A stretch of DNA of 64,000 bases from positions 216,217 to 280,216 of the forward strand of contig CAYGTV010000001.1 in assembly GCA_964353135.1 (NCBI GenBank). Reading direction: 5' to 3'. Made by a program: the position numbers and the translations under genes. Below, piece by piece: positions 22,091-56,830 of this stretch; position 1 is the first letter of the stretch, and every line of letters begins with the position of its first letter. This stretch comes from an uncultured Candidatus Saccharibacteria bacterium (GTDB lineage Bacteria; Patescibacteriota; Minisyncoccia; Phycocordibacterales; UBA918). The notes beneath the pieces are model-generated. The model worked only from the letters and a program-made list of their open reading frames with translations, was not told the origin of the DNA and did not search any database.

Positions 22091-23497
22091 TTATTTTGCT
22101 TCTGCATTTCCAGGTTTTTGAACTGAAAGTCCAAGTTCAATCAATTGCTCAATCTCCAATGGCTTTGGTGCATTCATAACAGCTGTCTGCCCCTTTCGGG
22201 TCATTGGAAATGCCTGCACTTCTCGGAGCGATTCTTCACCGGTAAGATTCATAACGTTTCTCTCTACTCCTAGTGCAATTCCTCCATGAGGTGGAGTGCC
22301 GTATTTGAACGCTTCTAGCATGTGACCTACTTTGTCTTGGATTTCTTCGTCTGTGTTCCCCATGACTTTATAGACAGCTTCTATAATTTCTGGTTTATGT
22401 GAACGGATGCTTCCTCCTCCGGCTTCAAATCCGTTGCAAACTAGGTCGTATTGAGTAGTAAGAATGTTCTCAATATTTTCTCCCTTCATTAAATCTTCAA
22501 TGAACTCAGCTTTTGGCATTGAGAATGGATTGTGAGTAAAGGTCCAACCTCCTTCGTTTGTTTTCTCGAAGAACGGAAAATCAATCACCCATGCATATGC
22601 AAGTACACCATTTTCTTTGTCTTCTTCTGTTCTTAGGTCGAATTTATCTGCTCCATATTTTTCCATTGATTCAGCATAAGTAACCCGTGGAAATGGTTTC
22701 TGTTTAATTGTGTATCCCATATCTTCAACCGTCGTAGTAATCATTTCTTCAATGATATTCATTACGTCTGTCTGCTCAACAAAGGACATTTCGACGTCAA
22801 TTTGAGTATGTTCGTATCCTCGGTCAGCCCGCAAGTCTTCGTCTCTAATAGCTCGAGCGATTTGTACGTAACGTTCAAATCCGGCATTCATTAGCAATTG
22901 CTTGTATTGCTGTGGTGATTGCGGTAGAGCATAAAATTTCCCTGGGTTATGTCGACTTGGTACCACGAAGTCACGTGAACCCTCAGGTGTCGATTCAGTC
23001 AAAAGTGGTGTTTCAATTTCACAGAAGTCTCGATCCATGAGGAAGTCTCTACACTTCTTTACAAACTCACTTCGAACGCGCATGTTTCTTTGCATTCGCT
23101 CGGTACGTAAGTCGAGAGATCGATGTTTGAGTCTTACTTCCTCATCCTTTCCTAATGAGTCTTCTGTAAGATCAAATGGCGCTGTAGCAGCTTCGTTTAA
23201 GATTGTAATTCCAGTGATTTCTAGTTCAATGTCTCCGTTAATAACCCCTTCCTTGATAGCCTTTTCTGGCCGCGCATTTACCATACCTGTCATTGCTACT
23301 ACATACTCGGCTTTGAGTGTCTTTGCTACTTCAAGTACATCAGGTTTGCCAAAGACTACCCCCTGCACTTTTCCGCTTCGGTCTCGAATATCACAAAATA
23401 CCATCTTACTCTGGTCTCGCGTGACGTGAATCCACCCATTGATGGTGACTTCTTTTCCTTTGTGTGCACTTAGTTCTGCAATTAGTGTTCGTTCCAT
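22091..23497 (-). CDS. aspS: aspartate--tRNA ligase (short form lacking GAD insertion domain)
   Basis: Class II motif 2 region QIARAIRDEDLRADRGYEHTQIDVEMSF matches AspRS FRDEDLRADRQPEFTQID; N-terminal OB fold; 468 aa. Confidence 0.9.
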   Translation of the reverse strand: MERTLIAELSAHKGKEVTINGWIHVTRDQSKMVFCDIRDRSGKVQGVVFGKPDVLEVAKTLKAEYVVAMTGMVNARPEKAIKEGVINGDIELEITGITILNEAATAPFDLTEDSLGKDEEVRLKHRSLDLRTERMQRNMRVRSEFVKKCRDFLMDRDFCEIETPLLTESTPEGSRDFVVPSRHNPGKFYALPQSPQQYKQLLMNAGFERYVQIARAIRDEDLRADRGYEHTQIDVEMSFVEQTDVMNIIEEMITTTVEDMGYTIKQKPFPRVTYAESMEKYGADKFDLRTEEDKENGVLAYAWVIDFPFFEKTNEGGWTFTHNPFSMPKAEFIEDLMKGENIENILTTQYDLVCNGFEAGGGSIRSHKPEIIEAVYKVMGNTDEEIQDKVGHMLEAFKYGTPPHGGIALGVERNVMNLTGEESLREVQAFPMTRKGQTAVMNAPKPLEIEQLIELGLSVQKPGNAEAK

Positions 23498-23500
23498 GAT

Positions 23501-24490
23501 TTATAGGTTAATGCCGATAGCGGTTCGGACTTTCTTGATAGTTTGGTTTGAGGTTTCTTTTGCTCGGGCTGCACCATCTAGTAATACGTGCTGTACATGT
23601 TCATCGGTGATTGAGTCTCGGCGTTCTCGCATTGGCGCGATGAGCGCAATCAGGTCAGCTGCGAGGATTTTTTTGAGGTCACCGTACCGACCTTTGTGTG
23701 TTTCATAGATTGGTTCTAGTTCCTCGGCTGTTTTGAGTAGGCGGTGAATAGCATAGACATGTTCTGGTCGGTCTCCGTCACTGTCGGTCACAATTCCCAT
23801 GACGGCTTTTTCGATCTCGTCGTCAGTTCCAAACAGAGGAATGGTGTTGCCTTTGCTTTTACTCATCTTTTCACCATCAGTTCCGGGAACGACTCCTACC
23901 GTATCAAGAATCATTTCTTTTGGCTCCTTGAGTAGGTTATCGCCATAGGCCCGGTTAAATTTTCCCACTGCTTCCCGGGTGTATTCCAGATGTTGTCGTT
24001 GGTCTTCCCCGACCGGTACAACATCGATATCGTAGAGTGTGATATCGGCCGCTTGCAGCATTGGGTAGGTAAATAGTCCGGCGTTTGGTTCCAGCCCTTT
24101 GGCTACTTTGTCTTTGTAGGAGTGTGCCAACTGCAAAAACGGCACAGTCACCATGCAGTTAAAGACCCAGCCGAGTTCCATGTGGTCCTGGTTATCAGAT
24201 TGTCGGAACATGATGCATTTTTTGGGATCAACACCCACTGCCAGGTAGTCTTTGACAACATTGATAATGTTCTGATGCATTTCTTGTGGGTCACGTAGCG
24301 AAGTAAGGGCATGGTAGTCGGCTACCATCAGGTGGCTATCGTACTCCTCGTACATTTCTACAAATGGTTTAAGCGCACCAAAATAGTTCCCGATGTGCAG
24401 GGTTCCAGATGATTGTAGTCCAGTTAGTAAACGTTTTTTAGATTCTGACATATTTGCTTGCAATAGTACCAAAAAACGCCTGTAAAACAA
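23501..24490 (-). CDS. trpS: tryptophan--tRNA ligase
   Basis: LTGLQSSGTLHIGNYFGA (HIGH region) and KMSKS motifs. Confidence 0.9.
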   Translation of the reverse strand: MFYRRFLVLLQANMSESKKRLLTGLQSSGTLHIGNYFGALKPFVEMYEEYDSHLMVADYHALTSLRDPQEMHQNIINVVKDYLAVGVDPKKCIMFRQSDNQDHMELGWVFNCMVTVPFLQLAHSYKDKVAKGLEPNAGLFTYPMLQAADITLYDIDVVPVGEDQRQHLEYTREAVGKFNRAYGDNLLKEPKEMILDTVGVVPGTDGEKMSKSKGNTIPLFGTDDEIEKAVMGIVTDSDGDRPEHVYAIHRLLKTAEELEPIYETHKGRYGDLKKILAADLIALIAPMRERRDSITDEHVQHVLLDGAARAKETSNQTIKKVRTAIGINL

Positions 24491-24639
24491 ACGTTTCTTG
24501 TGACCTCATTGAGATTTATTTCTAAAGTTGATGCAGGTGAGCTGGATAGAACAATTATTTCAATTGAAACGCAAATTGATACGTTGATGGCGGAATAACT
24601 GTGAAGGCAGTTCAGATGCACCACTTTTGGGAGAAAGCT

Positions 24640-26322
24640 TTACATTGCAAGTGGTAAGGTAAGAGTAAACCGAGATCCTTTCCCTGGGCCTTCTGAGTGG
24701 GCAGTGATGCTTCCTCCCATCGCTTCGGCCATCTTTTGCGCCACAAATAGTCCCAGCCCCGATCCTGATTTGTTTATATCATTAGCACCATCAGCCCGAC
24801 TAAATTTCTGGAAAAGTATGTCAATCGTTTCTTTTGACATACCTATTCCGGTATCGATAATGTCAACCGAGATAGTCTTGCTTTTCAAGTCGTCTCGCAT
24901 AAATACAGTAACCGTTCCTTTTGGTGTGTATTTTATCGAATTATTGATTAGGTTGTGAGCAATTTGAATTGTTTTACCGACGTCTGCACTAACAATCGCC
25001 TTACTCTGTAAGTCGGTTCTAAATAGCAGCATCAGCCCTTGTTTGATTGCAGTTGGTCTGATGTCGTCAGTTACACCTTCGATCTCGTGTCTAAGATTGA
25101 AATCAGACACCTCGTACTTCATGTTTCCAGACTCAATTCGAGAAACGTTGAGGTAATCCTCGACTACTAGAGCCATATTTTTTGCCGAAGATTCTATTCG
25201 TTCGATTGGTTCTTTGGCTTTGTCTGGGATCGGACCAAAGCTCCCCTCAGATAACATAGAAGCGTATCCACGAATCGAGGTGAGTGGGCTCCGTAATTGA
25301 TGTGAAGCAATCGACACAAACTCCGACTTCTGTTTATCAAGCGCCTTGAGGCGGACGTTAGCTTTTTCTAAATCAGTTGCAAGTTTCTCGATTCTCTCTC
25401 TTTGTTTGATTTCATTTCTAACACTACGAATAAGTAATACTCCTAGTATTATTGTGATTATCAAGGTTGCCAAAGCTATGGCTTGAACATTTTCAAGTTT
25501 TCTAACAAACAAGAGAGATGCAATAAGAACACCTAGCCCGGTGACCAAGGCTTCTGTTGCCATGATTTTTGCTTTGAACATTTGATAACGAACCATCAAA
25601 TATGTGATAAAGGCTACAAATATCGGCATACCAAAGAGGCCGTACTGACCTAGTTCCCAGTTTGTTTCAAAACTTCCAAGAATATTTCCTACCGAAAATG
25701 AAAATAAAAACGCTAGCATACCAGCTGTTGCGAGTGAAAATTCAATCCGTCGGCTTTTATTTTTAATTTTTCTTATTTCCTTGACTGCAAAAGTCAAAAT
25801 ACCTAGTGCAATGATAATCTCCGCGTAATACACGTATGATTGCCAGAGTGGTCCTTCGAGTGCTTCTCTCCAGCAGTTGGTAAAATCAAAACCTAACAAA
25901 TTGAGTGATGTGTGGGTAAACAAGAACGCAGGAACAAAAATTAGAAAAATAGCTAGCTCGCTTCTCCATGAAGGCCATCTGTTAGTGATTAGTGTATGTA
26001 TGAAATAGTAGGAAGCAACATAGATCAATAGCTCGAAGTGAATCAAGATTGACCAAAAGAACATAATCAAATCAGATCGTTCCGACGCCCATAGTACAAG
26101 GTCAATGAGACTCCAGGCGGTGAATGCTAATGCTAAGAAAAGTAAAGCGATTGAGGTTTTTGCTCTAGGATTATGGAAAAAGACAAACAAAGCAATCAGT
26201 AGGATCGAAAGCGACGGAAACAGATGTGAGTAGTAAATAAAGTTACCCCAAATATTCTCTGAGAAAATCAGGTATGGTGCAGGTTCCCAGAGGCAAATTG
26301 TTGGATCAGCAATATTTCCCAT
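24640..26322 (-). CDS. sensor histidine kinase with N-terminal polytopic membrane sensor domain
   Basis: H-box SHQLRSPLTSI, N-box NLINNSIKYT, G1 DTGIGM, G2 GSGLGL; ~8 N-terminal TM segments; no cognate response regulator nearby. Confidence 0.85.
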   Translation of the reverse strand: MGNIADPTICLWEPAPYLIFSENIWGNFIYYSHLFPSLSILLIALFVFFHNPRAKTSIALLFLALAFTAWSLIDLVLWASERSDLIMFFWSILIHFELLIYVASYYFIHTLITNRWPSWRSELAIFLIFVPAFLFTHTSLNLLGFDFTNCWREALEGPLWQSYVYYAEIIIALGILTFAVKEIRKIKNKSRRIEFSLATAGMLAFLFSFSVGNILGSFETNWELGQYGLFGMPIFVAFITYLMVRYQMFKAKIMATEALVTGLGVLIASLLFVRKLENVQAIALATLIITIILGVLLIRSVRNEIKQRERIEKLATDLEKANVRLKALDKQKSEFVSIASHQLRSPLTSIRGYASMLSEGSFGPIPDKAKEPIERIESSAKNMALVVEDYLNVSRIESGNMKYEVSDFNLRHEIEGVTDDIRPTAIKQGLMLLFRTDLQSKAIVSADVGKTIQIAHNLINNSIKYTPKGTVTVFMRDDLKSKTISVDIIDTGIGMSKETIDILFQKFSRADGANDINKSGSGLGLFVAQKMAEAMGGSITAHSEGPGKGSRFTLTLPLAM

Positions 26323-26324
26323 GT

Positions 26325-26501
26325 TTATTCAGCAAAAAGTTCTTCGAAATAATCCTCAGTTTCAGGGCCGTCAGGGTTTGTAAAGATCACGTAGTCTTGC
26401 TGTACAACTTTGACATAATAAGTGACCGCAATCGAGAATGCGATCATCGATAGCGTGATGACTCTTATGAGTAGTGCAAAATTAAACGGTTTCTTTAACA
26501 T
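26325..26501 (-). CDS. small single-TM protein (about 58 aa), hypothetical; not in supplied ORF track
   Basis: ATG at 26501 preceded by TATACT; ORF MLKKPFNFALLIRVITLSMIAFSIAV... ends 2 nt before kinase start. Confidence 0.35.
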   Translation of the reverse strand: MLKKPFNFALLIRVITLSMIAFSIAVTYYVKVVQQDYVIFTNPDGPETEDYFEELFAE

Positions 26502-26567
26502 GAACTATCTCTAGTATAGCCGGTCATCTCTCTGCTGAGTCTTACTAATATCGTTTTTGTGTATAAC

Positions 26568-27053
26568 TTATGATAAACAGTCAATCTCGTACACTCTTTG
26601 GAAATTCTTGGGTATGTTTGCTCTGTTTTTATTAAATTCAACTTTGCTTAGGGTAAAAATTGGACCAATGGTCTTTCTGCAGTTACGCGCTCCACAATGA
26701 CACCGACCCGGTAAAACCCAGTCCTTATCAGCTTCGGTAAAAGAGTAGTCCATTAGGAGCTCTTCGTTTGGTTGTATGTCTCTGATAGCGATGACTTTTC
26801 GTTTCGTCACAATAGCCACATTTGGATTGCATGAGTGGTTGATGTATTTAAATTTTGATTTTTTAGTATCAATCCAAGTATATCTTCCTGCTCCAATCCA
26901 ATCTAAACTTTGTTTTGCTAAAACAGTCGAGAATTTTTTTACTACTTTTAGAGGGCCATGAACATAGTCGACGGTTTCGTTGGCTTGGATTAGTTCGGCT
27001 GTATGTAGACCGTCTCCGTTAATTTTGCTTTTACGCACGTATAGTTGTTTCAT
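26568..27053 (-). CDS. SET-domain protein (putative protein lysine methyltransferase) with post-SET Cys cluster
   Basis: NHSCNPN, ELLMDYSF and CHCGARNC motifs. Confidence 0.85.
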   Translation of the reverse strand: MKQLYVRKSKINGDGLHTAELIQANETVDYVHGPLKVVKKFSTVLAKQSLDWIGAGRYTWIDTKKSKFKYINHSCNPNVAIVTKRKVIAIRDIQPNEELLMDYSFTEADKDWVLPGRCHCGARNCRKTIGPIFTLSKVEFNKNRANIPKNFQRVYEIDCLS

Positions 27054-27708
27054 ATGTTGTCATTTTTCGTAGGGCCAGTATACCAACAAGTCCATGCATT
27101 AGTGCATTTGAGACTGGATAAAACATGAGCGGGTGCCAAAACGCGCCATGAGTAGCAAACGTTACACCAGCTAGAATCGCATAAGCAGCAGCCCATATAG
27201 TCCATGGGAACCAATGTTCTTTTTCAGGGTTTTTCCATGTTGAGTGTAGTAAAGGATAGAATGATGGAAACGTTGAGAGGTTTGATAAAAACAAGAACCC
27301 CAGCACTGCCCATTCCCGATATTCTGGTGTGAGAAAGGCTGCACCGGCAAGTATCCAGGCTCCTATGTAAGCAATGGTGATAGCTATGTCACCCAAGAAA
27401 GACACTTTGTCCCAAAAATCCTCTGGCCACCAATCCTCTGGCCACCATTTATGGGGATTAATCAGACGAGCTTTTTTCCAACAACGATAGGAAACGTACA
27501 CGGCTAGTGTTCCGCATACAGTCGGGAGTATTAGTTCTGCAAACGTAGCGTTAGCATCCCATTCAAGCACCGCTAGAATCAAGGTGCCATACGCAAACAT
27601 AAACCACGTAACTGGCTCTGGGTCGATGTCTTCGTTTCTTATGTAAAAGATGTAGCCGATGAGCTGAAGTACTCCAGCTATAATCCCGGCAAGTAGTATT
27701 AAAGACAT
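27031..27708 (-). CDS. polytopic membrane protein, hypothetical (contains WWPEDWWPEDFW repeat)
   Basis: 225 aa, about 6 hydrophobic helices. Confidence 0.5.
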   Translation of the reverse strand: MSLILLAGIIAGVLQLIGYIFYIRNEDIDPEPVTWFMFAYGTLILAVLEWDANATFAELILPTVCGTLAVYVSYRCWKKARLINPHKWWPEDWWPEDFWDKVSFLGDIAITIAYIGAWILAGAAFLTPEYREWAVLGFLFLSNLSTFPSFYPLLHSTWKNPEKEHWFPWTIWAAAYAILAGVTFATHGAFWHPLMFYPVSNALMHGLVGILALRKMTTYETTIRA

Positions 27709-27777
27709 ATCAGATCAAAAGTAGACTCATACTACCAGAAACTTGTTTAAAAATAACGTTTCTAGTGTTCCTACTGT

Positions 27778-28983
27778 TCACATCTCGAGCGGCAACACCA
27801 GAGTAAAACGTGATCCCTTTCCTATCCCCTCTGAGTGAGCACTGATGTTCCCTCCCATAGCTACAGCAAGTTTCTGAGCCAGACATAAACGCAGATTATC
27901 TCCACAGACTTTTGATCCAGCATCGAGAGTTGAGTCTTTTTTGAAGGTAGTCTTGATTTGGTCAGATGAGATCCCTTTTCCGGTGTCGATCACGTCTACA
28001 TATACTTTTTTTGTTTTGAGGTCATCACGCACAAAGGCAGTGATGGTACCACGTGGGGTATTTTCCTCTGCCTGGGTAATGAGGATGCGCAGGATTTGAT
28101 GCACTTTGGTTCTATCAGCGTTGATAATAGTTTGGCTTGTGAGGTTTGTTCTGAGCAATAGGATGAGACCTTTTTTTAAAATTGCCGGACGTAGTTCGTC
28201 ACAGATAGTTTCGACTGTATCCCGCAGGTTGAGGTCGGTCAGACTGAGGTCCATGTGACCAGCCTCGAGCTTGGTTAGGTCTAGATGAGTTTCGATTGTT
28301 CTGGCCATCGCTTTGGCAGAGTCATTGATTTTGAGCAAGGCGTTTCGACTTTGTTCAGCATTTGCATCAGTATTTGATTCAAGAAGTGATTCAATCTGTA
28401 CTCGGAGGTTTGTCAGTGGCGTTCGTAACTGTTTAATGGTTCCTGCCAGGTCAGAGCTATGTTTCTGATTTTTCTTGAGCAGTTTAGCAGACGTCTGAGC
28501 GGCATTGTTGACACTGTCGTTGGCACGATGTTGATGATATCGGACACCGTGTACCAATAGATGGATACAGCACAGTGCTGCAGCTGCAATGATTCCCATC
28601 ATGTACCACGAAAGATAGGTGAAGAAATTACTAGTGGCACACGCCCCGATCGCTCCATTGATACTCTGGCTGCTCGGTAACACGAGCAAAACTGGGACAC
28701 TTGCCAAGTAGACAAGCCACACCAGCACTCGTTTGTAGGCTTCAACCGGTTGCAGTTGGTGATACGTAGCTGACAACGCACCCAAGCTGGCGGCAATTGC
28801 CAGAATCCACAGTCCTATGGTCAACATCACATCCACACTGCTGGTATAGAGATAGCAAAAATTGTTGGTGCTAGTTGGGTCAGCAGTAACATTGAAAATC
28901 AATATAGCAACAGTTAAGATCGCTAAAACCGCAAAGCAAATGCTCCGCGTCTGTTCGAGTGGACTGGCCAAGTTACGCCCCAT
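27778..28983 (-). CDS. histidine-kinase-like membrane protein, catalytically degenerate (pseudo-kinase paralog of 24640..26322)
   Basis: C-terminus similar to upstream kinase (GGNISAHSEGIGKGSRFTLVLP) but H-box reads IKQLRTPL (His->Lys), N-box Asn lost (ILITQAEENT), G2 box NLRL. Confidence 0.75.
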   Translation of the reverse strand: MGRNLASPLEQTRSICFAVLAILTVAILIFNVTADPTSTNNFCYLYTSSVDVMLTIGLWILAIAASLGALSATYHQLQPVEAYKRVLVWLVYLASVPVLLVLPSSQSINGAIGACATSNFFTYLSWYMMGIIAAAALCCIHLLVHGVRYHQHRANDSVNNAAQTSAKLLKKNQKHSSDLAGTIKQLRTPLTNLRVQIESLLESNTDANAEQSRNALLKINDSAKAMARTIETHLDLTKLEAGHMDLSLTDLNLRDTVETICDELRPAILKKGLILLLRTNLTSQTIINADRTKVHQILRILITQAEENTPRGTITAFVRDDLKTKKVYVDVIDTGKGISSDQIKTTFKKDSTLDAGSKVCGDNLRLCLAQKLAVAMGGNISAHSEGIGKGSRFTLVLPLEM

Positions 28984-29043
28984 ATGTAGTACCAGTATAT
29001 CAAGCGGCCGGTTCTTTTTATGTAGTTATTACGCTAGCAATCC

Positions 29044-29547
29044 TTACAGGAGAAAGAGAATAACCAACGGAGCCATCAGCCACCAAAAGAAAGAACTTTC
29101 CGCTCCAAATGCTGTCTGTAGTGGGGTGCCTGGTGTAAGGAATTCTGTTACCGGCAATACGTGGAAAGAAAATGCCATGACAAGTACACTGGCTGAGCCA
29201 GCTAGTAAAAATTTCTTGAAAAAGCTTTCAAATTTTTTCTCCTTGAATTCATCAGGCATGATCCGGTAACACAGCCAGGTCATCAAAATGGTGAATGTTG
29301 CAAAGATAGTCAGCTTGCCAAATGATTGAGCTAGTCCACTACCAAGGTTTTCGGTCAAGTACGCTGTGTAAGGAAATTCGATCAAGATCAATAGTGCCAG
29401 GTATAGTCCGACGATTACGTTTATCATGGCTTGTCGTCCTTTAAAGGTTGCCCAAATCATGAATAACATAAAGACAGCCAAGAGATACGAGATCTCGAAC
29501 ATAAAGTCTAAAACAAAGCCCCAGTCCATAGCTTGATTATAATCCAA
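29044..29547 (-). CDS. membrane protein, hypothetical
   Basis: 167 aa, 5 hydrophobic segments. Confidence 0.5.
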   Translation of the reverse strand: MDYNQAMDWGFVLDFMFEISYLLAVFMLFMIWATFKGRQAMINVIVGLYLALLILIEFPYTAYLTENLGSGLAQSFGKLTIFATFTILMTWLCYRIMPDEFKEKKFESFFKKFLLAGSASVLVMAFSFHVLPVTEFLTPGTPLQTAFGAESSFFWWLMAPLVILFLL

Positions 29548-29598
29548 ATTTTTAATTCTGTTGGCTAAAAAACATCGACCTGTTCACAACAAATTTAT

Positions 29599-29627
29599 TT
29601 GACATTTTTAATAATGTATACATAATA
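29599..29627 (+). promoter_or_regulatory. sigma70-type promoter TTGACA-17-ATAATA
   Basis: Consensus -35, AT-rich -10 upstream of ORF 29656 with GGAG RBS. Confidence 0.5.
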
Positions 29628-29655
29628 TAAGATATCCTCAACAAGGAGCAAAGAA

Positions 29656-30120
29656 ATGAGTACATTAGTAAATAAGACAGAGGTACGCATCTTGCAAAGC
29701 GTCATGATGATGTCAGTTGTCGTATTCTGTATATTTGTGTGGTGGGCTTCCATGCAGCTGGTGGGTAGCTATTTTGGAGGGTTCTATATTCTAGATTCAT
29801 ACCAAGGCTGGTATGCCGCGGTGTGGCTCGCCGGATACGGATTTATAATTCCCCTGATGATTCTGAAAGAATACGGTTTCAGTTTCGAAAAAATGGAAAT
29901 AGATGATGACGGCGAGTTTGCGAACTCGCCGTCTTTTTATATCTGCTCGATTGCGTACTTGGTTGCATCCTGTATATGCTTGAATCGGTCGCCCATCAGT
30001 TTTACTCCACCAAACCAACGGGTGACGCAGATAATGCAGTCACTCACCTGCTCCTTTTGCATGACTCGGAGGATGACCATTCCAGCACCAGTCTCGCCGT
30101 CGTCGGCTTTGGTTTCATAA
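29656..30120 (+). CDS. small membrane protein, hypothetical; 3' third of called ORF doubtful
   Basis: Good RBS (AAGGAGCAAAGAA-ATG), N-terminal TM helices; ORF reads through a strong + strand terminator at 29908-29940 and overlaps convergent yigZ by ~180 nt. Confidence 0.3.
   Translation: MSTLVNKTEVRILQSVMMMSVVVFCIFVWWASMQLVGSYFGGFYILDSYQGWYAAVWLAGYGFIIPLMILKEYGFSFEKMEIDDDGEFANSPSFYICSIAYLVASCICLNRSPISFTPPNQRVTQIMQSLTCSFCMTRRMTIPAPVSPSSALVS
29908..29940 (+). terminator. rho-independent terminator (GACGGCGAG-loop-CTCGCCGTC + TTTTTAT)
   Basis: 9-bp perfect GC-rich stem plus T-run; also abuts yigZ stop codon. Confidence 0.7.
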
Positions 30121-30362
30121 ATAACCCCTTCGTTACTGATCCGAGCGGCCCATGAATTATGGTCGGCTTTAGCGTATTTTTTATTTTGCTTCAAACGTCG
30201 CAAAAACAGCTTGATATCTTCCCGCCCCTGCACCCGCCCCACCGACACACTGTATCGACTCCCCCGATCCTCAATGATGTGTTCATACAACACAAAATCC
30301 TTAGTTGGAGTCTTTGAGTCTTCAAAATTAAAGCGTGGTGGTTGCATGTTGACATTATACAT
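29937..30362 (-). CDS. yigZ: IMPACT/YigZ family (UPF0029) N-terminal domain protein
   Basis: YEHIIEDRGSRYS...GREDI...AKADHNSWAARIS...DDGETGAG...WFGGVKLMGDRFKHI family pattern. Confidence 0.85.
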   Translation of the reverse strand: MYNVNMQPPRFNFEDSKTPTKDFVLYEHIIEDRGSRYSVSVGRVQGREDIKLFLRRLKQNKKYAKADHNSWAARISNEGVIYETKADDGETGAGMVILRVMQKEQVSDCIICVTRWFGGVKLMGDRFKHIQDATKYAIEQI

Positions 30363-30376
30363 TATATATGTATAAT
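30349..30376 (+). promoter_or_regulatory. sigma70-type promoter TTGACA-16-TATAAT, overlapping the first codons of yigZ on the opposite strand
   Basis: Perfect consensus hexamers; sequence closely resembles promoter at 29599. Confidence 0.55.
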
Positions 30377-30407
30377 ATAAAAGATTAAATTTGTACAGGA
30401 GATCAGA

Positions 30408-30653
30408 ATGGATAACATCAAGAGCTTAGATAATTCTAGCGTGGCTTTGAATTTTTCTGAAGGGCTGTGGAACATTTTTGCAACGTCGATGACAGCTGTT
30501 ATCGCCACGCATTTTTTCGCAAATGCCACTGAAGTCAACTTGGAAGAAGTTTCAAGGTTTCAATTCATGTTCATGGTGGCTTTCTTCATCCCTCTGTTTG
30601 GACCAATGATCATTTGGTTTCAAAAGGCGTTGAAGAAATACATACACAGCTGA
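30408..30653 (+). CDS. hypothetical small protein (81 aa)
   Basis: ACAGGAGATCAGA-ATG RBS; two hydrophobic segments. Confidence 0.45.
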   Translation: MDNIKSLDNSSVALNFSEGLWNIFATSMTAVIATHFFANATEVNLEEVSRFQFMFMVAFFIPLFGPMIIWFQKALKKYIHS

Positions 30654-39689: not shown

Positions 39690-41045
39690 CTATTCAGCCG
39701 CTTCAACAATTTCAATTACTGTGATCTCGTCGGGGTTTTCAGGGAAGGTTCGCTGCCAGAAAGGGGTGACTTGAACTCGGGCGCGTTCGATACCTGGGTA
39801 GGCTGTAATAGCGTTAGAAATAGCTGTTTTTGGCAGTCCAGCGAGGTCTTTTTTAAGTTTTTCTGCATCATATTCCCAAATTAGTCGTGGTTTTCCAGTT
39901 AGGTTGAAAGTCAAAGAGTCAGCGTTTGCGATCACGCTATTACTAGTTGTGGCTGACGCGTACCTAAACGTTAACTGCGAAGGGTCGTCGACGCGTACCG
40001 GTCCACCTTCATAGGTAGCAACAGCTTCTTTGGCGATAAAGGTTCCAAAATCATCAGCTTTAAATAAAGGGATCTGTAGGACGGCTTGTTCGCGAATTGT
40101 TACTAGGTCCTGACCGTACTCAATGGCTGGTAGCTGATTATATGTGATTGCCACTGCTCCTGGAAAGGCAATCATGCCAGCTGGCTTGTTTGAATCGATC
40201 TTTTCTAGTAGTGCGTTACGTAGTTCAATTTGGATTGCTTGACGGGCTGTGTTTAGTTCACCTTCGTCGATCTGGAACTGAGGACCATCAAATCCGCCAG
40301 TCAGTGGAGCCGGGTTAGTAGCGGAAATAGACCTAAAGAGATCCATGAATCCGCCTTCTTCGAATCCTGGTATATCAAATCTGGTACCGGCTTGGAGGTT
40401 GTACTCTTCCCCGATCTCATCAGCAAATACTTCTGCCTGTATGGTGCCAGGATTACCATCGATCGCACCTGGAACAACGACAGATTCTTGGATTCGGTAC
40501 ACCAACCCACCTGGTGAGCGGAAACGGGTGTTCTTAATTAGTCGCTCTGCCCCTGGAGTACTTTTACTGATTTCAATGACGCCGGTTGCTTGTTCTTCGA
40601 TATTGATTGAGCCGGATGCCTGAACCTGGCTCTCTTTGGTCTCTTCTAGTGTCATAATCTCGTAGCTGAGCACACCGTCTGCTGGGGTCGCTACAGCTGT
40701 AAATTCAGCGTTGATATTTGGATCTCTAAACTCAGGATAGATCGTGAGCTCTGTCTTGCCAAGTAGACTACTGAGCAACGCTGCCGCACCAACTACAACC
40801 ACAAAAAATACAATGGCCAGCACCATTCTATTGCGCTCTTTTTTGGTGCCATCTTGAATAACAATTTGAGGACTTTCGTCACGCGGACGCATTGCCGGCC
40901 TAGGACGAAGCGACACATCATCAGAGCTGATCTCAATGTCACTCTCGACATCAGGACTGATAACATTACTCTTTTGAATAGGACGGCGTTTAGGACGTGC
41001 TTGTCCAGCTGGGCGAATATCCTGTAGGTTCCATTTTTGCGACAT
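39690..41045 (-). CDS. bitopic membrane protein, hypothetical (basic/Pro-rich cytoplasmic N-terminus, single TM, large extracytoplasmic domain)
   Basis: 451 aa; TM segment LAIVFFVVVVGAAALLSSLL; no recognised motif. Confidence 0.55.
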   Translation of the reverse strand: MSQKWNLQDIRPAGQARPKRRPIQKSNVISPDVESDIEISSDDVSLRPRPAMRPRDESPQIVIQDGTKKERNRMVLAIVFFVVVVGAAALLSSLLGKTELTIYPEFRDPNINAEFTAVATPADGVLSYEIMTLEETKESQVQASGSINIEEQATGVIEISKSTPGAERLIKNTRFRSPGGLVYRIQESVVVPGAIDGNPGTIQAEVFADEIGEEYNLQAGTRFDIPGFEEGGFMDLFRSISATNPAPLTGGFDGPQFQIDEGELNTARQAIQIELRNALLEKIDSNKPAGMIAFPGAVAITYNQLPAIEYGQDLVTIREQAVLQIPLFKADDFGTFIAKEAVATYEGGPVRVDDPSQLTFRYASATTSNSVIANADSLTFNLTGKPRLIWEYDAEKLKKDLAGLPKTAISNAITAYPGIERARVQVTPFWQRTFPENPDEITVIEIVEAAE

Positions 41046-41063
41046 ATAGTTATAGTATAGCTT

Positions 41064-42236
41064 TTATAAGTACTCAAAAAAAGCTCGGTCTGCCTTTGTG
41101 TGGAAAAAGCGGCTAGCGATTGCGAGCGGTACATCATGATTTTTTGGGGTTTGTGGGTCAGGGTTTAGCAAATCTGGGGTTGTGACTGTTACCAAAACAT
41201 TTCCCTTGCTGGCTTCTTTTCCGGCTGCATCAATGATAGGTGCAAAAAAATCGGCTAGACCGGCGTCCGCTTCTAGGTAGACATGTTTTGGAATAGTGAG
41301 CCGGTCACCGGTTTCTTTGAATAGTTCAACTACGTGTGCTTGGTATGCTTCTAGAGTTGCCTTAATATCATCGTGTAATTCTTCTTGAGTGTGTAATGTG
41401 CGCATACTCGTAAATGCATCATGTAGTGGTAGTTTGGTTGCCTTTGCGATCTCTCGAGCTATAGATGCCCGACCAAAAGCGACATGTGTGCTGTACTGGA
41501 GTGCATTGTGTCTAACGATTCCTAGTTCTGTCGCCTCGTTTGTAATATCGACTAAACAGAAATCAACCCCTGTTGGCTGTAGCGCATCGGTCACATAATA
41601 ATTAGCCATCATAAAGGACGTAATTTCGAGATCAGCAGCAGGAACCAGCTTTTGTTGCATGTCGGTAAGACTTGCAACAATCTCTTCCCTAATCAGGGTG
41701 CTGACATGTGTGACACTGAGGTGTTGAGCGGTCTGTTTGTTAGGGGTTGCTACCCGGTATCCATTGGCGTGTGTATCGAGAATCGTTCGACTGGTTTCTT
41801 GCACACCCAGGTCCTTGAGTGGATGCTTCTCTTCAAATTCATCCATTGCTTGGTCTGCCGCAGTGGTGGCTAGTTGCTTGAGTAGCTCTTGGGTAATAAC
41901 AAACGGTTCATCCTTTTCGAATTTCACTGTCCTAGCAACTGTGTATGACCAGGGTGCACTGATGGTGGCCTGTACAGTGGTAATCTTGGCCCGTTTGTTG
42001 TGAGCTGCCAAAGCAGAACGTCCTTCCCCTTCAAAGGCCATCATGACGTTCATGATGGCTGTAACCACTGCTTTACTACTCTCTCCAACTGATTCGGTGA
42101 CCTTGAGTGGAGTGTGTTCTCGGTGTGTCCAAATCGGTCCGTCTCCTGGTGTAGGTGCAACAATAGCCAGACCGACACTGCCAGAACCAACGTCAATCAA
42201 AAGAGCATATCCACTACTGGATTTCCGAGAAAACAT
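41064..42236 (-). CDS. actin-like ATPase fold protein (FtsA/PilM/Ppx-GppA superfamily), hypothetical
   Basis: N-terminal LLIDVGSGSVGLAIV phosphate-1-like motif and later VDITNEATE...VAFGRASIAREIA resembling FtsA/PilM phosphate-2/adenosine motifs. Confidence 0.6.
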   Translation of the reverse strand: MFSRKSSSGYALLIDVGSGSVGLAIVAPTPGDGPIWTHREHTPLKVTESVGESSKAVVTAIMNVMMAFEGEGRSALAAHNKRAKITTVQATISAPWSYTVARTVKFEKDEPFVITQELLKQLATTAADQAMDEFEEKHPLKDLGVQETSRTILDTHANGYRVATPNKQTAQHLSVTHVSTLIREEIVASLTDMQQKLVPAADLEITSFMMANYYVTDALQPTGVDFCLVDITNEATELGIVRHNALQYSTHVAFGRASIAREIAKATKLPLHDAFTSMRTLHTQEELHDDIKATLEAYQAHVVELFKETGDRLTIPKHVYLEADAGLADFFAPIIDAAGKEASKGNVLVTVTTPDLLNPDPQTPKNHDVPLAIASRFFHTKADRAFFEYL

Positions 42237-48217: not shown

Positions 48218-48553
48218 TTATAATACCACTCCTTCAGCTAATAGGAGCTTCTTTTTGGTACTTACGCCCCCACGGTTGTATCCACCTAGTCCCCCATCAG
48301 TACGTATTACTCGGTGACAAGGCACATCTGGATCATAGTTGGCGGCCATGATGTTCGCCACCGCCCGAGCAGCCTTTGGGTTTCCAGCCGCTATAGCTAC
48401 CTCCTTATAGGTCATGACTGAGCCTTTAGGGATACAAGCGACGACTTGTTTTACAATTGTGGTAAACCTTGTCATATAGCTGAGGTTATTTTGAATGGAG
48501 TCTAATAAAGTCCTCTCTGCTAATTGAGGCGCGAGCAATCGGTCTGTCCTCAC
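48218..48553 (-). CDS. methylated-DNA--protein-cysteine methyltransferase, minimal DNA-binding/catalytic domain only (true start probably Met at 48478)
   Basis: Active-site PCHRVI motif, downstream GGL..Y. Confidence 0.75.
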   Translation of the reverse strand: MRTDRLLAPQLAERTLLDSIQNNLSYMTRFTTIVKQVVACIPKGSVMTYKEVAIAAGNPKAARAVANIMAANYDPDVPCHRVIRTDGGLGGYNRGGVSTKKKLLLAEGVVL

Positions 48554-49157
48554 CCGAGAAAAGAGATCGGCGTTCAGCTTCGTCTATCTCACCCTCAATC
48601 GTAAACCCGAGCTTCTCTAGCAAGGCAGGATTTTTAGCTACTATCCAGGATGTAGCATATACCATCCCAACTTCATCGACAGCTTTCAGTTGCTCAGCAG
48701 CTAATCTAAGACCCTCACGCAATAGGCGCAACTGCTCTGGGCGGTCTGTTAGCATGTTTGGAAATACGTGTAGATGCATATTCTTATCTTCGTCTAGATG
48801 ATAGTGCAAAAGATCATTCAAGCGCTCATTTTTATCAGATAACGCTTCATCCTGTTGTTCTCGTTGAAATCCAGCTGGATCAGCCTCTATGCGGCTAATT
48901 ACCGGTGCATAGGCTTCTAATACGGTCTCTGTAAAGGTGTCTAAATCATCTATCTGCTCTACACCTTCCAGCACCTTTCCGGCTTGGATTAGGTCCATGT
49001 CAGTTAACCAACTGTAGTTGCTAAGCCGCATAAGAATATTTTCACGCCGTTTGCTTGGCTCTACTGTTTCAAACAATGAGGCAATGTTCTTTTTAGCTAC
49101 GGTAACAACTTTACTATCTGGCTGTTTTTCTTCTCTAAACACATGTTCATTTTCCAT
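48486..49157 (-). CDS. hypothetical protein (223 aa)
   Basis: ORF with no recognised motif; C-terminal region weakly acetyltransferase-fold-like. Confidence 0.45.
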   Translation of the reverse strand: MENEHVFREEKQPDSKVVTVAKKNIASLFETVEPSKRRENILMRLSNYSWLTDMDLIQAGKVLEGVEQIDDLDTFTETVLEAYAPVISRIEADPAGFQREQQDEALSDKNERLNDLLHYHLDEDKNMHLHVFPNMLTDRPEQLRLLREGLRLAAEQLKAVDEVGMVYATSWIVAKNPALLEKLGFTIEGEIDEAERRSLFSGEDRPIARASISREDFIRLHSK

Positions 49158-50773: not shown

Positions 50774-51322
50774 TTATTGTGCTGTGAAGGTAGCAAAGAT
50801 CTGGTCGATCTGTACATCACCCGCTGGGTTGAACGCATTGTCACCGTTGTCGCTAAATACAACGACTGCATATTGTTGTCCAACTCGGGTTGAATCCTGG
50901 AGGATGATGTTTTCTGGTACGACTCCGGCAGCAGCACTAAATCGTACTACTCCTTTAATAAACCCTAGTTGACCATTGTTGTAGTCACGAACACCAATCC
51001 ATCCTTCCTCGATTGGGTAGGTTGCTCGTTCAAGAGAAACTGATCGTCCGGCAGCTTGGTCGTTAACTACTACTGATCCGTCACCAACTGGAAGTGTTGG
51101 CGCTACTGTTGGTTCACTTGTGGCCGTATCTTGACCTTCTGCCATTTCTTCCATTTCGCCCTCTTCCATCTCACCTGCTTCAGTATCGTCTTGGGCTCGG
51201 TCGGAAACGTTTGCTTGGTCAGCTGGACCAGAAAATGCCCATACCAACATACCACCGATAAGGAGACCGACTACGAAAGATACGAGTGTCTTTGATCCGT
51301 CTTGTTGTTCTTCTGCTGCCAT
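50774..51322 (-). CDS. hypothetical membrane-anchored/secreted protein with acidic EMEEGEMEE stretch
   Basis: N-terminal signal-anchor LVSFVVGLLIGGMLVWAF. Confidence 0.45.
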   Translation of the reverse strand: MAAEEQQDGSKTLVSFVVGLLIGGMLVWAFSGPADQANVSDRAQDDTEAGEMEEGEMEEMAEGQDTATSEPTVAPTLPVGDGSVVVNDQAAGRSVSLERATYPIEEGWIGVRDYNNGQLGFIKGVVRFSAAAGVVPENIILQDSTRVGQQYAVVVFSDNGDNAFNPAGDVQIDQIFATFTAQ

Positions 51323-54392: not shown

Positions 54393-55778
54393 CTAGAAAG
54401 GTAACTCACCCACCGGCAAATTGCCAGGTGCGTTTTGTCGCTTGGATGCGATTCGGGACAGTCCGGGGGTCAGTACTGAGCTGCCTGGGATATGGTAAAT
54501 AGTTGCTAGTTCCTCAACTGACATGGTTTTTGGTTGGTGGATGTCGTTTACTCGTCCTGTACCAGCCCAATACTTTCGTAGCTTGAAGTGTTCCACCTCC
54601 TCTTTTTTACGGGCGATTTTTTTTGCACCTGTCACGTCCTCGTACCAACTGTTGTCAAAGTCAGTTTTCCAGCGTGGCGCCAAAGAGTTGCGGCCAATGA
54701 CACTATACTGAGTAAACACACCAAAGGTTGGAGCAATCATAAGTGGATTGAACTGCGTTTTGTCGAGAGTTACATACATTGTGCGGATTGCAACGTCATA
54801 TGCAGGTTTGCTGATATTCCTTTCGATGGCAGCAATGGTGTCGCGCTCCCCTCCCGTAAGCATCGGACGGCTCTCTGTTTCTTCAGCTGTGCTCTGACCC
54901 TTATCGTCACGCCCCATCATTTCATTGATAGCTTTCTTTGCATCTTTTTCCCAGGTACCTTGCTCGCGCAGGTATCCATTGGCCAGATTTTCTTTGGCGT
55001 GAGGGGTACACAAAATTTGAATATATACTCGTTCGTGGGGTTTAGCTTTAGATAAAAACTCGATCGTAGCTGACATTGGTTCAAACTTCTCTTCTTCTTT
55101 GATTGGACGATCGTGTCCAAATTCTATGTAGGTTTTGATCGGATAAATGCTGTCCTCTTTTTTGATTACATGGAAGCCCATCATGTCCATCTTTTCAGGG
55201 TCCCATTGTAATTCTGATGCGTAATCTAACAACTCTTCTTCGATTTCTATTCCTGGGTAATTAGCATACAGCTGTGATTCCATGACGTCCTTTAGTTTGC
55301 TTGGTACATTGATGTAAAAACGTACCTCGCCACCAATTGAGGCTAGCTCTAGGCTGATAGGTTGCTTACCTTTGCCGTCTAGATATGCCTGAGATAGGTT
55401 ATCTGGGTTCATGGGAGCAAACACGTAGGTAAAGACACTTTCCATCGCCTCTGGGGATTTCAGGACCTCTGGTGGTAGTTTAATTCGCAAGGTCGTTCGT
55501 CCCATTTTGTAATAGAACATAGTGCGGACAAAATCCATCCAGCGGTCATAGGTCAAATAAAACAGCACCACAGGTAGAAAGAGTGGCAGTAAAAACAGTG
55601 CCAGTGAAATCGCAGGCAAAAACGCAATGTCAGACCCTCGGACAAAAAACCAGTACACTAATGCAATTACTCCAAAACAAAGTGGAATAGCAATTGCAGC
55701 AAAAGCTCCGGTAAAGACATCCTTCATGTGTGTATATTGTAGCATCAGACAAACAAAAACGGCGTGAACTATGTCCAC
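54393..55778 (-). CDS. hypothetical membrane protein (461 aa; N-terminal TM helices, large soluble domain)
   Basis: No recognised motif. Confidence 0.5.
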   Translation of the reverse strand: MDIVHAVFVCLMLQYTHMKDVFTGAFAAIAIPLCFGVIALVYWFFVRGSDIAFLPAISLALFLLPLFLPVVLFYLTYDRWMDFVRTMFYYKMGRTTLRIKLPPEVLKSPEAMESVFTYVFAPMNPDNLSQAYLDGKGKQPISLELASIGGEVRFYINVPSKLKDVMESQLYANYPGIEIEEELLDYASELQWDPEKMDMMGFHVIKKEDSIYPIKTYIEFGHDRPIKEEEKFEPMSATIEFLSKAKPHERVYIQILCTPHAKENLANGYLREQGTWEKDAKKAINEMMGRDDKGQSTAEETESRPMLTGGERDTIAAIERNISKPAYDVAIRTMYVTLDKTQFNPLMIAPTFGVFTQYSVIGRNSLAPRWKTDFDNSWYEDVTGAKKIARKKEEVEHFKLRKYWAGTGRVNDIHQPKTMSVEELATIYHIPGSSVLTPGLSRIASKRQNAPGNLPVGELPF

Positions 55779-55804: not shown

Positions 55805-56830
55805 TTACTCAGCGATGGTGTATGTTCCGTTTGCTAATTTCTTGAACAGATTTCCGTCCTGAAGGTTTACGAGAATAGTGTTGTCTTTCACGTATCGTTC
55901 TTTTCGTACTTTGTCGATGATTTCTTCTCTAGAAAGTGGGCCTTCAGCTTCTAGGATTTCTTTGAGCACTTCTTTGACTACTCCGGCTGTGTATCCCCAT
56001 TCTGAAAGTGCGTACAATCCCCGTCCAACTAGTACAAATCGCGCGTCTTTGATTAGTTCGTTATGAGTGGTCGCGATGTGTGCCTTGTGGTCGAACAGTT
56101 CGTTGATTGTTTGTGCTACTTCTTTGAAGTGCATCGGTGATCCGTGTCGCTTTACCGCTAGGTATGCGTAGTCCCGGATTCCTTTGACTCGGATATTTGG
56201 ACTGTCAGATGGTCCCCAGTCTCCTAGGGGGTTTTGTCCGATTTGCTTTGAAATCTTGAGCCATCGCATCAATACTTCTTCGTTATGCTGCTCAGCAATT
56301 TCTGCTAATTCGGCCTTAAATCGACTAACGATTTCTGATTCACTGACTAGTTCGTCTCGCTTAAGAGATTTTCGAACTGCCCGCAGGGCCTTCTCAACCT
56401 CTTCAACTTTCTTGTGCTCGGTGAACCATCGGTGGGCGTAGTGCGGGTTTTCCTTGCTTCGATAGAAAGGATCACCAACTACTAGTAAGAAATAGAGATG
56501 ATTTCGTACCAGCGGATCAGACGATAGTTCGTCTAGCAGAACATGTTCTGCAATCAAACCGCCTCCTAGCTCATCGATCAGTTTATGCATCTCGATTAGT
56601 AGGTCGTACTGCTTTTTGTATACATCTGACTTTTGGATTGATTGAATCCCGTAGTTTTCAATCTGTCGTACACGCTCGCGGGTAATCCCGTAGCTTTGTC
56701 CGATCGCTTCGAGCGTAAAAGTCTCACCGTCTTTGTTAAGACCGTAGCGTTTTTGTAATACATCACGAGCACGCTCAGGGAGGGCTTCAAGCAATGCGGT
56801 AGTTACTTGTTCTGGTTTAAATGAAATCAT
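55805..56830 (-). CDS. sigma-70 region-4-like HTH domain protein, hypothetical
   Basis: N-terminal LPERARDVLQKRYGL...TLEAIGQSYGITRERVRQIE resembles sigma70 region 4; remainder unassigned. Confidence 0.5.
   Translation of the reverse strand: MISFKPEQVTTALLEALPERARDVLQKRYGLNKDGETFTLEAIGQSYGITRERVRQIENYGIQSIQKSDVYKKQYDLLIEMHKLIDELGGGLIAEHVLLDELSSDPLVRNHLYFLLVVGDPFYRSKENPHYAHRWFTEHKKVEEVEKALRAVRKSLKRDELVSESEIVSRFKAELAEIAEQHNEEVLMRWLKISKQIGQNPLGDWGPSDSPNIRVKGIRDYAYLAVKRHGSPMHFKEVAQTINELFDHKAHIATTHNELIKDARFVLVGRGLYALSEWGYTAGVVKEVLKEILEAEGPLSREEIIDKVRKERYVKDNTILVNLQDGNLFKKLANGTYTIAE

Follow-up and report, generated by a model that had tools for sequence, protein, structure and literature searches.

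The window analyzed here, a 64,000-nucleotide stretch of contig CAYGTV010000001.1, consists of typical housekeeping DNA of the Candidate Phyla Radiation (CPR) and encodes, at 27778..28983 on the minus strand, a histidine pseudokinase of 401 amino acids (aa) followed by a stop codon. All window features cited by coordinates below lie on this strand. The open reading frame (ORF) was recognized from HisKA and HATPase_c matches and from 15 further full-length orthologue clusters. The protein has lost the catalytic motifs of a histidine kinase (HK), has retained the fold, traces back to a single loss of catalysis and evolves under purifying selection. It is very probably a functional pseudokinase. 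With modest confidence, we favour as a whole the statement that it is a sensor or modulator acting on the pathway of HK560, a canonical 560-aa paralogue with a multi-transmembrane (TM) sensor and intact H, N, G1, F and G2 boxes (24640..26322). Histidine pseudokinases form a small, growing class with few well-characterized examples such as DivL and PsmA. The protein represents a further family in this class, and no such family appears to have been described so far in CPR bacteria.

Loss of catalytic motifs

Residues 142-401 of the pseudokinase align with residues 296-560 of HK560 by BLASTP with 40% identity over 265 aa (E = 6e-64), far beyond chance, with two small gaps, one of 3 residues (linker) and one of 2 (ATP lid). 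This bears out the claim of an earlier note on this DNA that the C-terminal half of the protein aligns with the kinase at 24640..26322. The same note proposed comparing both proteins with the HisKA and HATPase_c profiles. Both domains are matched in both proteins, much more weakly in the pseudokinase: HisKA (PF00512) scores 30.5 bits (cut-off 26.9) over profile positions 12-66 only, i.e., after the H-box, and HATPase_c (PF02518) scores 49.7 bits, compared with 61.3 and 87.5 bits in HK560.

The H-box SHQLRSPL of HK560 has become IKQLRTPL, with Lys184 (codon AAA, 28432..28434) at the phospho-acceptor position. The N-box NLINNSIKYT reads ILITQAEENT, within the eroded segment ILRILITQAEENTP (28054..28095); Gln304 (28072..28074) takes the place of the Mg-binding Asn, and Asn308 that of the N-box Tyr. 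The G2 motif GSGLGL has changed to GDNLRL, the whole eroded box CGDNLRL (27886..27906) replacing GTGLGL, and the second F-box Phe is also gone (FKKD in the window sequence). The G1 box DTGKG (27973..27987) and the G3 motif GKGSRFTL are both kept. Profile alignment to GacS (7z8n) and to kinase 4u7n likewise places Lys184 on the acceptor His of HE[IL]RTPL, Gln304 on the Mg-binding Asn and CGDNLRL on the G2 motif GxGLGL. The H-box, N-box and G2 changes and the surviving DTGKG listed in the earlier note are thus all real. The note had named sequencing error as a possible source of the H-box change, to be sought at 28390..28420, a range that does not include the Lys184 codon. Because AAA is two substitutions away from CAT or CAC, a single-base error cannot account for Lys184, and independent assemblies share the change.

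Orthologue family and selection

A search of 5.8 billion proteins, with clusters drawn from JGI, ENA, NCBI and Logan assemblies, returned the identical protein, from two independent sources, together with 15 other clusters, all full-length (395-404 aa) and 47-76% identical. The acceptor position is Lys in 14 of the 16 clusters, Arg in one and Leu in one. None has His. The earlier note suggested looking in relatives for the same substitution, and the loss of His extends to all 15 further clusters. The position of the N-box Asn is occupied by Gln (8), His (6), Glu (1) or Arg (1), and the N-box Tyr is lost as well. G2 takes the form (C/S)xDNLKL, the ATP lid is 2-5 residues shorter in every cluster, and the second F-box Phe is variable. 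G1 DxGxG is kept throughout the family (Asp in 15 and Asn in one; both Gly in all 16), as is G3. Position H+1 is Gln, and H+4, which is Thr in the window copy, varies (T11/A2/S1/G1/K1). Kinases of the HK560 clade are canonical at every motif position, the acceptor His included (22/22). The sole match in a species-level genome collection is a metagenome-assembled genome (MAG) labelled "Candidatus Paceibacterota bacterium" (locus L002, JBDNIW010000013.1). Public sources label the pseudokinase proteins "signal transduction histidine kinase", an annotation under which they would be wrongly counted among active sensors.

Even at 47% identity, every one of the 16 clusters encodes an intact protein of about 400 aa. 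Synonymous sites are saturated between most orthologue pairs (proportion of differing synonymous sites about 0.8; nonsynonymous, 0.17-0.25), which makes these pairs unusable for rate ratios. Finite ratios of nonsynonymous to synonymous rates (dN/dS) therefore come only from the close-relative group L002/L011/L014/L016, where the pseudokinase gives 0.14-0.23 and the adjacent tryptophanyl-tRNA synthetase (TrpRS) 0.12-0.14. Over the same genome pairs, the four-TM domain of the pseudokinase is 59-72% identical; the sensor of HK560 reaches only 33-36% in comparisons with the window. The pseudokinase is under purifying selection and is not a pseudogene; its dimerization and histidine phosphotransfer (DHp) face and its TM core are strongly constrained. 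HKs are scarce in CPR genomes, at about 0.29 per 100 genes, and are missing altogether from 19% of the MAGs (PMC10805038). In such HK-poor genomes, a dead kinase constrained almost like a tRNA synthetase points to a real non-catalytic role.

Domain organization and predicted structure

An AlphaFold2 model was built from a 94-sequence alignment (mean pLDDT 78.6). The N-terminal sensor domain (residues 1-146; 28546..28983) comprises four TM helices, predicted at residues 8-34, 49-77, 82-101 and from 118 onward, and is well conserved in TM2-TM4. TM4 passes unbroken into DHp α1 as a single helix (118-203), which includes a variable linker between TM4 and DHp (residues 147-175; 28459..28545), the least conserved segment of the protein. 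The DHp (HisKA-like) helical hairpin (residues 176-241; 28261..28458), remodelled and strongly conserved, is completed by α2 (207-241). It is followed by a degenerate catalytic and ATP-binding (CA) domain of the GHKL ATPase fold (residues 242-401; 27781..28260), recognized by HATPase_c, the model and Foldseek; its pLDDT is mostly above 90, falling below 50 in the lid (350-357). The model contains no PAS or HAMP domain. With the in/out topology assigned by the positive-inside rule, the outer loops are short (14-16 residues), and the two predicted outside loops each carry one Cys residue that is invariant in the orthologue alignment, C43 (28855..28857) and C115 (28639..28641), within the conserved motifs NPT..N..C and LPSS.S...G.CA..FF.

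A Foldseek search of the PDB matched HK853, GacS, RetS and DivL at E = 1e-14, with a probability of 1.00 for HK853, GacS and WalK. RetS gave the best superposition (TM-score 0.82-0.85 on target, root-mean-square deviation 2.6-2.9 Å), which may reflect only the DHp-CA conformational state. The majority-residue frequency within the family is 0.81-0.84 in TM2-TM4, 0.80-0.84 in the CA core and 0.79 in DHp α1, and is lowest in the ATP lid (0.52) and the TM4-DHp linker (0.47).

Divergence from HK560

At 19 positions, the pseudokinase clade and the HK560 clade each have a fixed residue of their own; 12 of these positions lie in DHp (from HK560 to pseudokinase: V179L, A182T, S183I, H184K, I193L, G195V, Y196Q, A197I, S198E, D232T, Y233H and N235D). 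They include H+11 and H+12, which changed from G-Y to V-Q; from the work of Skerker and Laub, these are reportedly among the positions that set HK-response regulator specificity in HisKA kinases. This concentration of fixed changes in DHp, together with the conservation of α1, indicates that the docking face was remodelled and has since stayed fixed, whereas constraint on the ATP lid was relaxed. The two DHp hairpins are equal in length, with 56 residues from the H position to the Glu of SRIE/TKLE.

The N-terminal sensors of the two proteins are unrelated (hhalign probability 2.3%) and match only at an 11-residue membrane-exit motif, LL(V/I)xxVR. The pseudokinase is thus not a simple recent duplicate of HK560. 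The idea that its four-TM domain is a shortened HK560 sensor is ruled out by the same comparison.

The genomic slot

Most related loci with enough sequence on either side (identical or near-identical loci were collapsed) share the gene order GrpE-DnaK-DnaJ-(Impact_N)-161-aa membrane protein-[variable slot]-TrpRS-aspartyl-tRNA synthetase (AspRS). The slot holds HK560 followed by the pseudokinase in the identical loci L002 and L019, in L016 and L017, in the identical pair L009/L010, in the near-identical pair L011/L013 and in L026. The window, as well as L027 and L028 as far as their sequence extends, has the pseudokinase, a 225-aa protein, a SET-domain protein, a small ORF and HK560; the gene order in the window is rearranged relative to the tandem loci. 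The pseudokinase occurs alone in L003, in L004, L005 (identical) and L018 (near-identical) and in the identical pair L014/L015, and HK560 occurs alone in L006, L007 and L008. HK560 and the pseudokinase thus lie within a few kb of each other in 8 of the 11 lineages, usually on the same strand and 53-83 nucleotides (nt) apart, with HK560 usually directly upstream where both share the slot.

Between the two genes, the window encodes the 225-aa membrane protein (27031..27708) and the SET-domain protein (26568..27053; Pfam E = 3e-11), both of which are also found upstream of HK560 in L026. The SET gene adjoins HK560 in the window, L006, L009/L010, L011 and L026, linking a lysine-methyltransferase-like gene to a CPR sensor kinase. 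The 161-aa conserved membrane protein (29044..29529) marks the upstream edge of the slot and occurs in most related loci with enough upstream sequence, whether or not the pseudokinase is present.

Just upstream of HK560, a 58-aa ORF with a single TM helix (26325..26501) is a truncated counterpart of a TM/Cys-rich protein of the relatives. The gene of the latter overlaps the HK560 start codon by 4 nt (L009 7163..7534; L002 7855..8226; L006 9699..10004), and its product of 97-136 aa has a single TM helix and an acidic domain with roughly 9-12 Cys. The window counterpart retains the TM helix and a QDY(L/V)I motif without the Cys-rich domain. This small TM/Cys-rich protein may be an accessory co-sensor of HK560.

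Origin of the family

A profile search of 1.84 billion representatives found two proteins, P0122 (404 aa) and P0124, that have the same domain and fully intact catalytic motifs. Both are encoded directly upstream of trpS (in L012 and L029, respectively), and in L012 P0122 is the only kinase in the slot. In a neighbour-joining tree of the DHp-CA core (100 bootstrap replicates), the pseudokinases form a monophyletic clade with a long stem in 100/100 replicates, indicating that catalysis was lost once. The HK560 clade is recovered in 95/100 replicates and is sister to the pseudokinases, the two being joined in 100/100. The active short kinases lie at the base of the tree in a weakly supported order (18-36% for the DHp-CA core of P0122), and their four-TM domains fall outside the pseudokinase diversity, with 27-40% identity.

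P0122 could in principle be a recent recombinant of a pseudokinase N-terminus and an HK560 C-terminus, which is unsupported since its four-TM domain is only 27-37% identical to those of the pseudokinases and lies outside their diversity; given the low basal bootstrap, it may descend from an old gene conversion. A search of the 5.8 billion proteins with a profile of the four-TM domain alone returned one 155-aa fragment (P0385). It did not return known members either, presumably because hydrophobic words saturated the candidate list.

In the simplest history, an active short four-TM kinase would have been located next to trpS. Its catalytic apparatus (His, N-box Asn, G2 box and part of the F-box) would have disappeared a single time, in an ancestor whose slot also held HK560, and the DHp surface of the protein would have been remodelled and then fixed. 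A later rearrangement would have given the gene order of the window, and some lineages would have lost the HK560 cassette. One syntenic slot thus offers a natural series: in some loci it holds only an active kinase, either short or long, in others the active long kinase paired with a pseudokinase, and in others again just the pseudokinase. This series could be used for studying the transition from kinase to pseudokinase.

Comparison with known systems

The family resembles PsmA in its erosion and DivL in its conserved DHp patch, and the notion that one HK-fold protein acts on another recalls the RetS-GacS pair. None of DivL, PsmA and RetS is an orthologue, and the family differs from them in its four-TM sensor and CPR lineage.

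DivL of Caulobacter crescentus (PDB 4q20) has Tyr at the H position, keeps all ATP boxes and binds phosphorylated DivK (DivK~P) via a conserved DHp face (PMC4211667). The pseudokinase matches DivL both by structure (Foldseek) and by profile (E = 4e-12). Both proteins have the class I HK fold, an H-position residue that cannot be phosphorylated and is conserved among orthologues, and a highly conserved patch around this position, on the face where response regulators dock. DivL has no kinase or phosphatase activity and acts by partner binding, and the pseudokinase would be similar in this respect. The two differ in that DivL has Tyr and keeps its N, G1, F and G2 boxes, whereas the pseudokinase has Lys and has lost the N box, G2 and part of F. 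DivL is also an alphaproteobacterial protein with multiple cytoplasmic PAS domains, and the pseudokinase is a four-TM protein without PAS from CPR (Paceibacterota). DivL has the partners DivK~P and CckA, whereas no response regulator was found in the loci scanned for the pseudokinase. The traits of the DivL group that the pseudokinase lacks are therefore the H-position Tyr, PAS domains, intact boxes and the alphaproteobacterial CckA-DivK context.

PsmA of Streptomyces venezuelae lacks the His, has a lid incompatible with ATP and no D/ExxT/N motif, and binds DivIVA at hyphal tips (PMC12963549). The pseudokinase similarly lacks the H-box His and a phosphatase motif, has a degenerate ATP-lid region and is conserved in a fixed genomic context within one lineage. 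It differs as a short membrane protein without a REC domain from an unrelated lineage, whereas PsmA, a hybrid HK-like protein, combines PAS domains with a REC domain and a long disordered region.

The intramembrane-sensing kinases LiaS and BceS have, like the pseudokinase, a sensor made up only of TM helices with short outer loops and a last TM helix continuous with DHp, with no PAS or HAMP. BceS (PDB 8g3a) is among the fold matches. These kinases are active and have two TM helices, a cognate response regulator and an ABC-transporter partner, whereas the pseudokinase has four TM helices, has lost the full catalytic motif set and has no such neighbours.

RetS of Pseudomonas aeruginosa is an HK-fold protein that controls another HK, GacS, by direct DHp-DHp contact and not by its own phosphotransfer. 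PDB entries for this system are 6dk7, 6dk8 and 7n0e. RetS retains its His and receiver domains, and its gene is not adjacent to gacS; a heterodimer of the pseudokinase is a proposal. Plant subfamily-2 ethylene receptors and phytochromes also have a degenerate HK fold, have lost the His and several ATP boxes and signal by protein-protein interaction. They are eukaryotic and have other sensor domains and partners, so they offer an analogy only.

Proposed function and alternatives

From its motifs, the pseudokinase is predicted to be unable to bind Mg-ATP productively or to autophosphorylate; lacking an E/DxxT/N motif, it is also unlikely to be a phosphatase. It would therefore signal by protein-protein contact. 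The loss of His, Asn and G2 in all 16 full-length clusters under the constraint described above supports the earlier note's proposal of a pseudo-HK that could not autophosphorylate. A signal in or at the membrane, possibly sensed via the two invariant outer-loop Cys, would be passed down the TM4-DHp helix and would change the way in which a partner is bound by the conserved DHp α1 face or the CA domain. This partner would most likely be a component of the HK560 pathway, either HK560 itself or its putative response regulator, and the action would resemble that of RetS on GacS or of DivL in coupling DivK~P to CckA.

A partnership with the active paralogue, as the earlier note also suggested, is plausible in view of the sister relationship of the DHp-CA cores, and the proximity of the two genes in 8 of the 11 lineages fits a shared pathway. 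Several observations weigh against it. In three of the 11 lineages, the slot holds the pseudokinase but no HK560, and selection on the pseudokinase is not relaxed. L014 is about 90% nucleotide-identical to L002 on both flanks and lacks a 5.6-kb HK560 cassette (L002 4518..10133 versus L014 5887..6085) that encodes a 168-aa protein, an EamA protein, a 292-aa protein, a SET protein, a Cys-rich protein and HK560. Its pseudokinase is intact, with a dN/dS of 0.14-0.16 relative to tandem lineages. The specificity positions differ from those of HK560, so that the two proteins may not share a partner. Against the model as a whole, the conserved G1 Asp may still permit some nucleotide binding, and DHp α2 has a conserved clade-specific His, His233 (28285..28287). 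Receiver domains were sought by phmmer with the CheY, Spo0F and PhoB receivers and then with a hidden Markov model (HMM) extended by 13 hybrid-kinase receiver domains. Nothing better than E = 0.5 was found among all ORFs of the window and L001-L008, so that 64 kb of window sequence and about 340 kb from related loci yielded no receiver domain. None turned up either when 30 further window ORFs were scanned with Pfam, or in the gene tables of loci fetched by exact-protein look-up, which makes both kinases orphans here. Thus the dead-kinase part of the earlier note is well supported, and its partner part is plausible and only partly supported.

Several of these observations would be expected if the pseudokinase were a stand-alone protein of the DivL or PsmA type, a serious but not a likely alternative. 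Its DHp face or four-TM domain would then bind another partner, either a phosphorylated response regulator encoded elsewhere or a membrane or cytoskeletal protein outside two-component signalling, and its adjacency to HK560 would reflect only shared ancestry in a recombination-prone slot. The lineages with the pseudokinase alone (L003, L004/L005/L018 and L014/L015), the clean absence of the cassette from L014, the differently fixed specificity positions, the rearranged order in the window and the mosaic of HK560 sensor and core domains between lineages all fit this model. On the other side, the two genes remain close in most lineages, no alternative partner was identified, and HK560 could lie elsewhere in the pseudokinase-alone genomes, where only 3.5-19 kb is visible around each locus. 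In L014-type genomes, either HK560 is encoded elsewhere or the function of the pseudokinase is HK560-independent. A more radical variant, which we consider decidedly unlikely, is that some Paceibacterota have no response regulator and no HK-like protein other than the dead kinase, which would then be a stand-alone four-TM receptor signalling without phosphotransfer. Here, a redox- or ligand-sensitive outer Cys pair could possibly drive the repurposed DHp/CA docking module, and the conserved G1 Asp pocket might serve as a non-catalytic nucleotide sensor. If true, two-component signalling would have left a minimal, phosphate-free descendant in an ultra-small genome.

Models that preserve some phosphate chemistry fit less well. 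It is very improbable that phosphotransfer is kept through phosphorylation of His233 in trans by the CA domain of HK560 inside a heterodimer. His233, which is Tyr in HK560, is the sole candidate alternative acceptor; it is kept in 15 of the 16 clusters within an invariant E231-T232-x-L234 motif, and the equal hairpin lengths would also suit such a heterodimer. Nevertheless, it is Gln in P0016, aligns with a mostly hydrophobic α2 position about two turns above the canonical site (presumably Leu309 of HK853), and sits in a protein whose own ATP site is destroyed; such a mechanism is not known to have a precedent. A HisKA protein that only dephosphorylates a response regulator, without kinase activity, would agree with the retained DHp fold and with Thr at H+4 in the window copy. 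This role is rejected as very improbable, given the Gln at H+1, which leaves no E/DxxT/N motif, and the unconserved H+4; PsmA was judged a non-phosphatase by the same criterion (PMC12963549). A role as an anti-sigma-type Ser kinase (a SpoIIAB/RsbW-like GHKL protein) is likewise ruled out, as it requires the N and G2 boxes missing here. The eroded motifs and the ATP lid, the least constrained part of the CA domain, are what a sequencing or assembly artefact or a neutrally drifting dead duplicate might show. This explanation is refuted by the two-base distance of AAA from His, the identical protein in two independent sources, the same changes in 15 further intact clusters and the dN/dS values, and its probability is practically nil.

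Other features of the locus and window

HK560 is a mosaic between L002 (8223..9902) and L011 (6098..7792): the DHp-CA half is 88% identical and the sensor half 36%, with TrpRS at 70%. The pattern points to recombination between lineages, with an exchange of either sensor domains or the kinase-pseudokinase block. Between L002 and L014, the pseudokinase gene is more diverged over its first ~150 nt. The window AspRS (22091..23497) is 88% identical to that of L016/L017 but shares only 35-48% identity with its positional counterpart in most other related loci (compared at L002 12551..13909, L003 9931..11292 and L017 3816..5213), with TrpRS at 64-85%. Two AspRS types appear to have been swapped in situ.

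A promoter and terminator scan of 24000..30500 gave 14 promoter-like sites against 13.3 expected and no convincing intergenic terminator, and Rfam and tRNA scans of the window found nothing. Pfam gave no match at E ≤ 0.001 for five sizeable ORFs of 451, 390, 223, 182 and 461 aa (39690..42236, 48486..49157, 50774..51322 and 54393..55778). In the leucyl-tRNA synthetase (964 aa; 56931..59825), the editing domain is followed by an inserted NUDIX domain (residues 389-506, E = 5.5e-9). A 341-aa protein (55805..56830) combines an N-terminal sigma-70 region 4 with HARE-HTH, an unusual architecture, and is the only regulator-like protein seen in the window.

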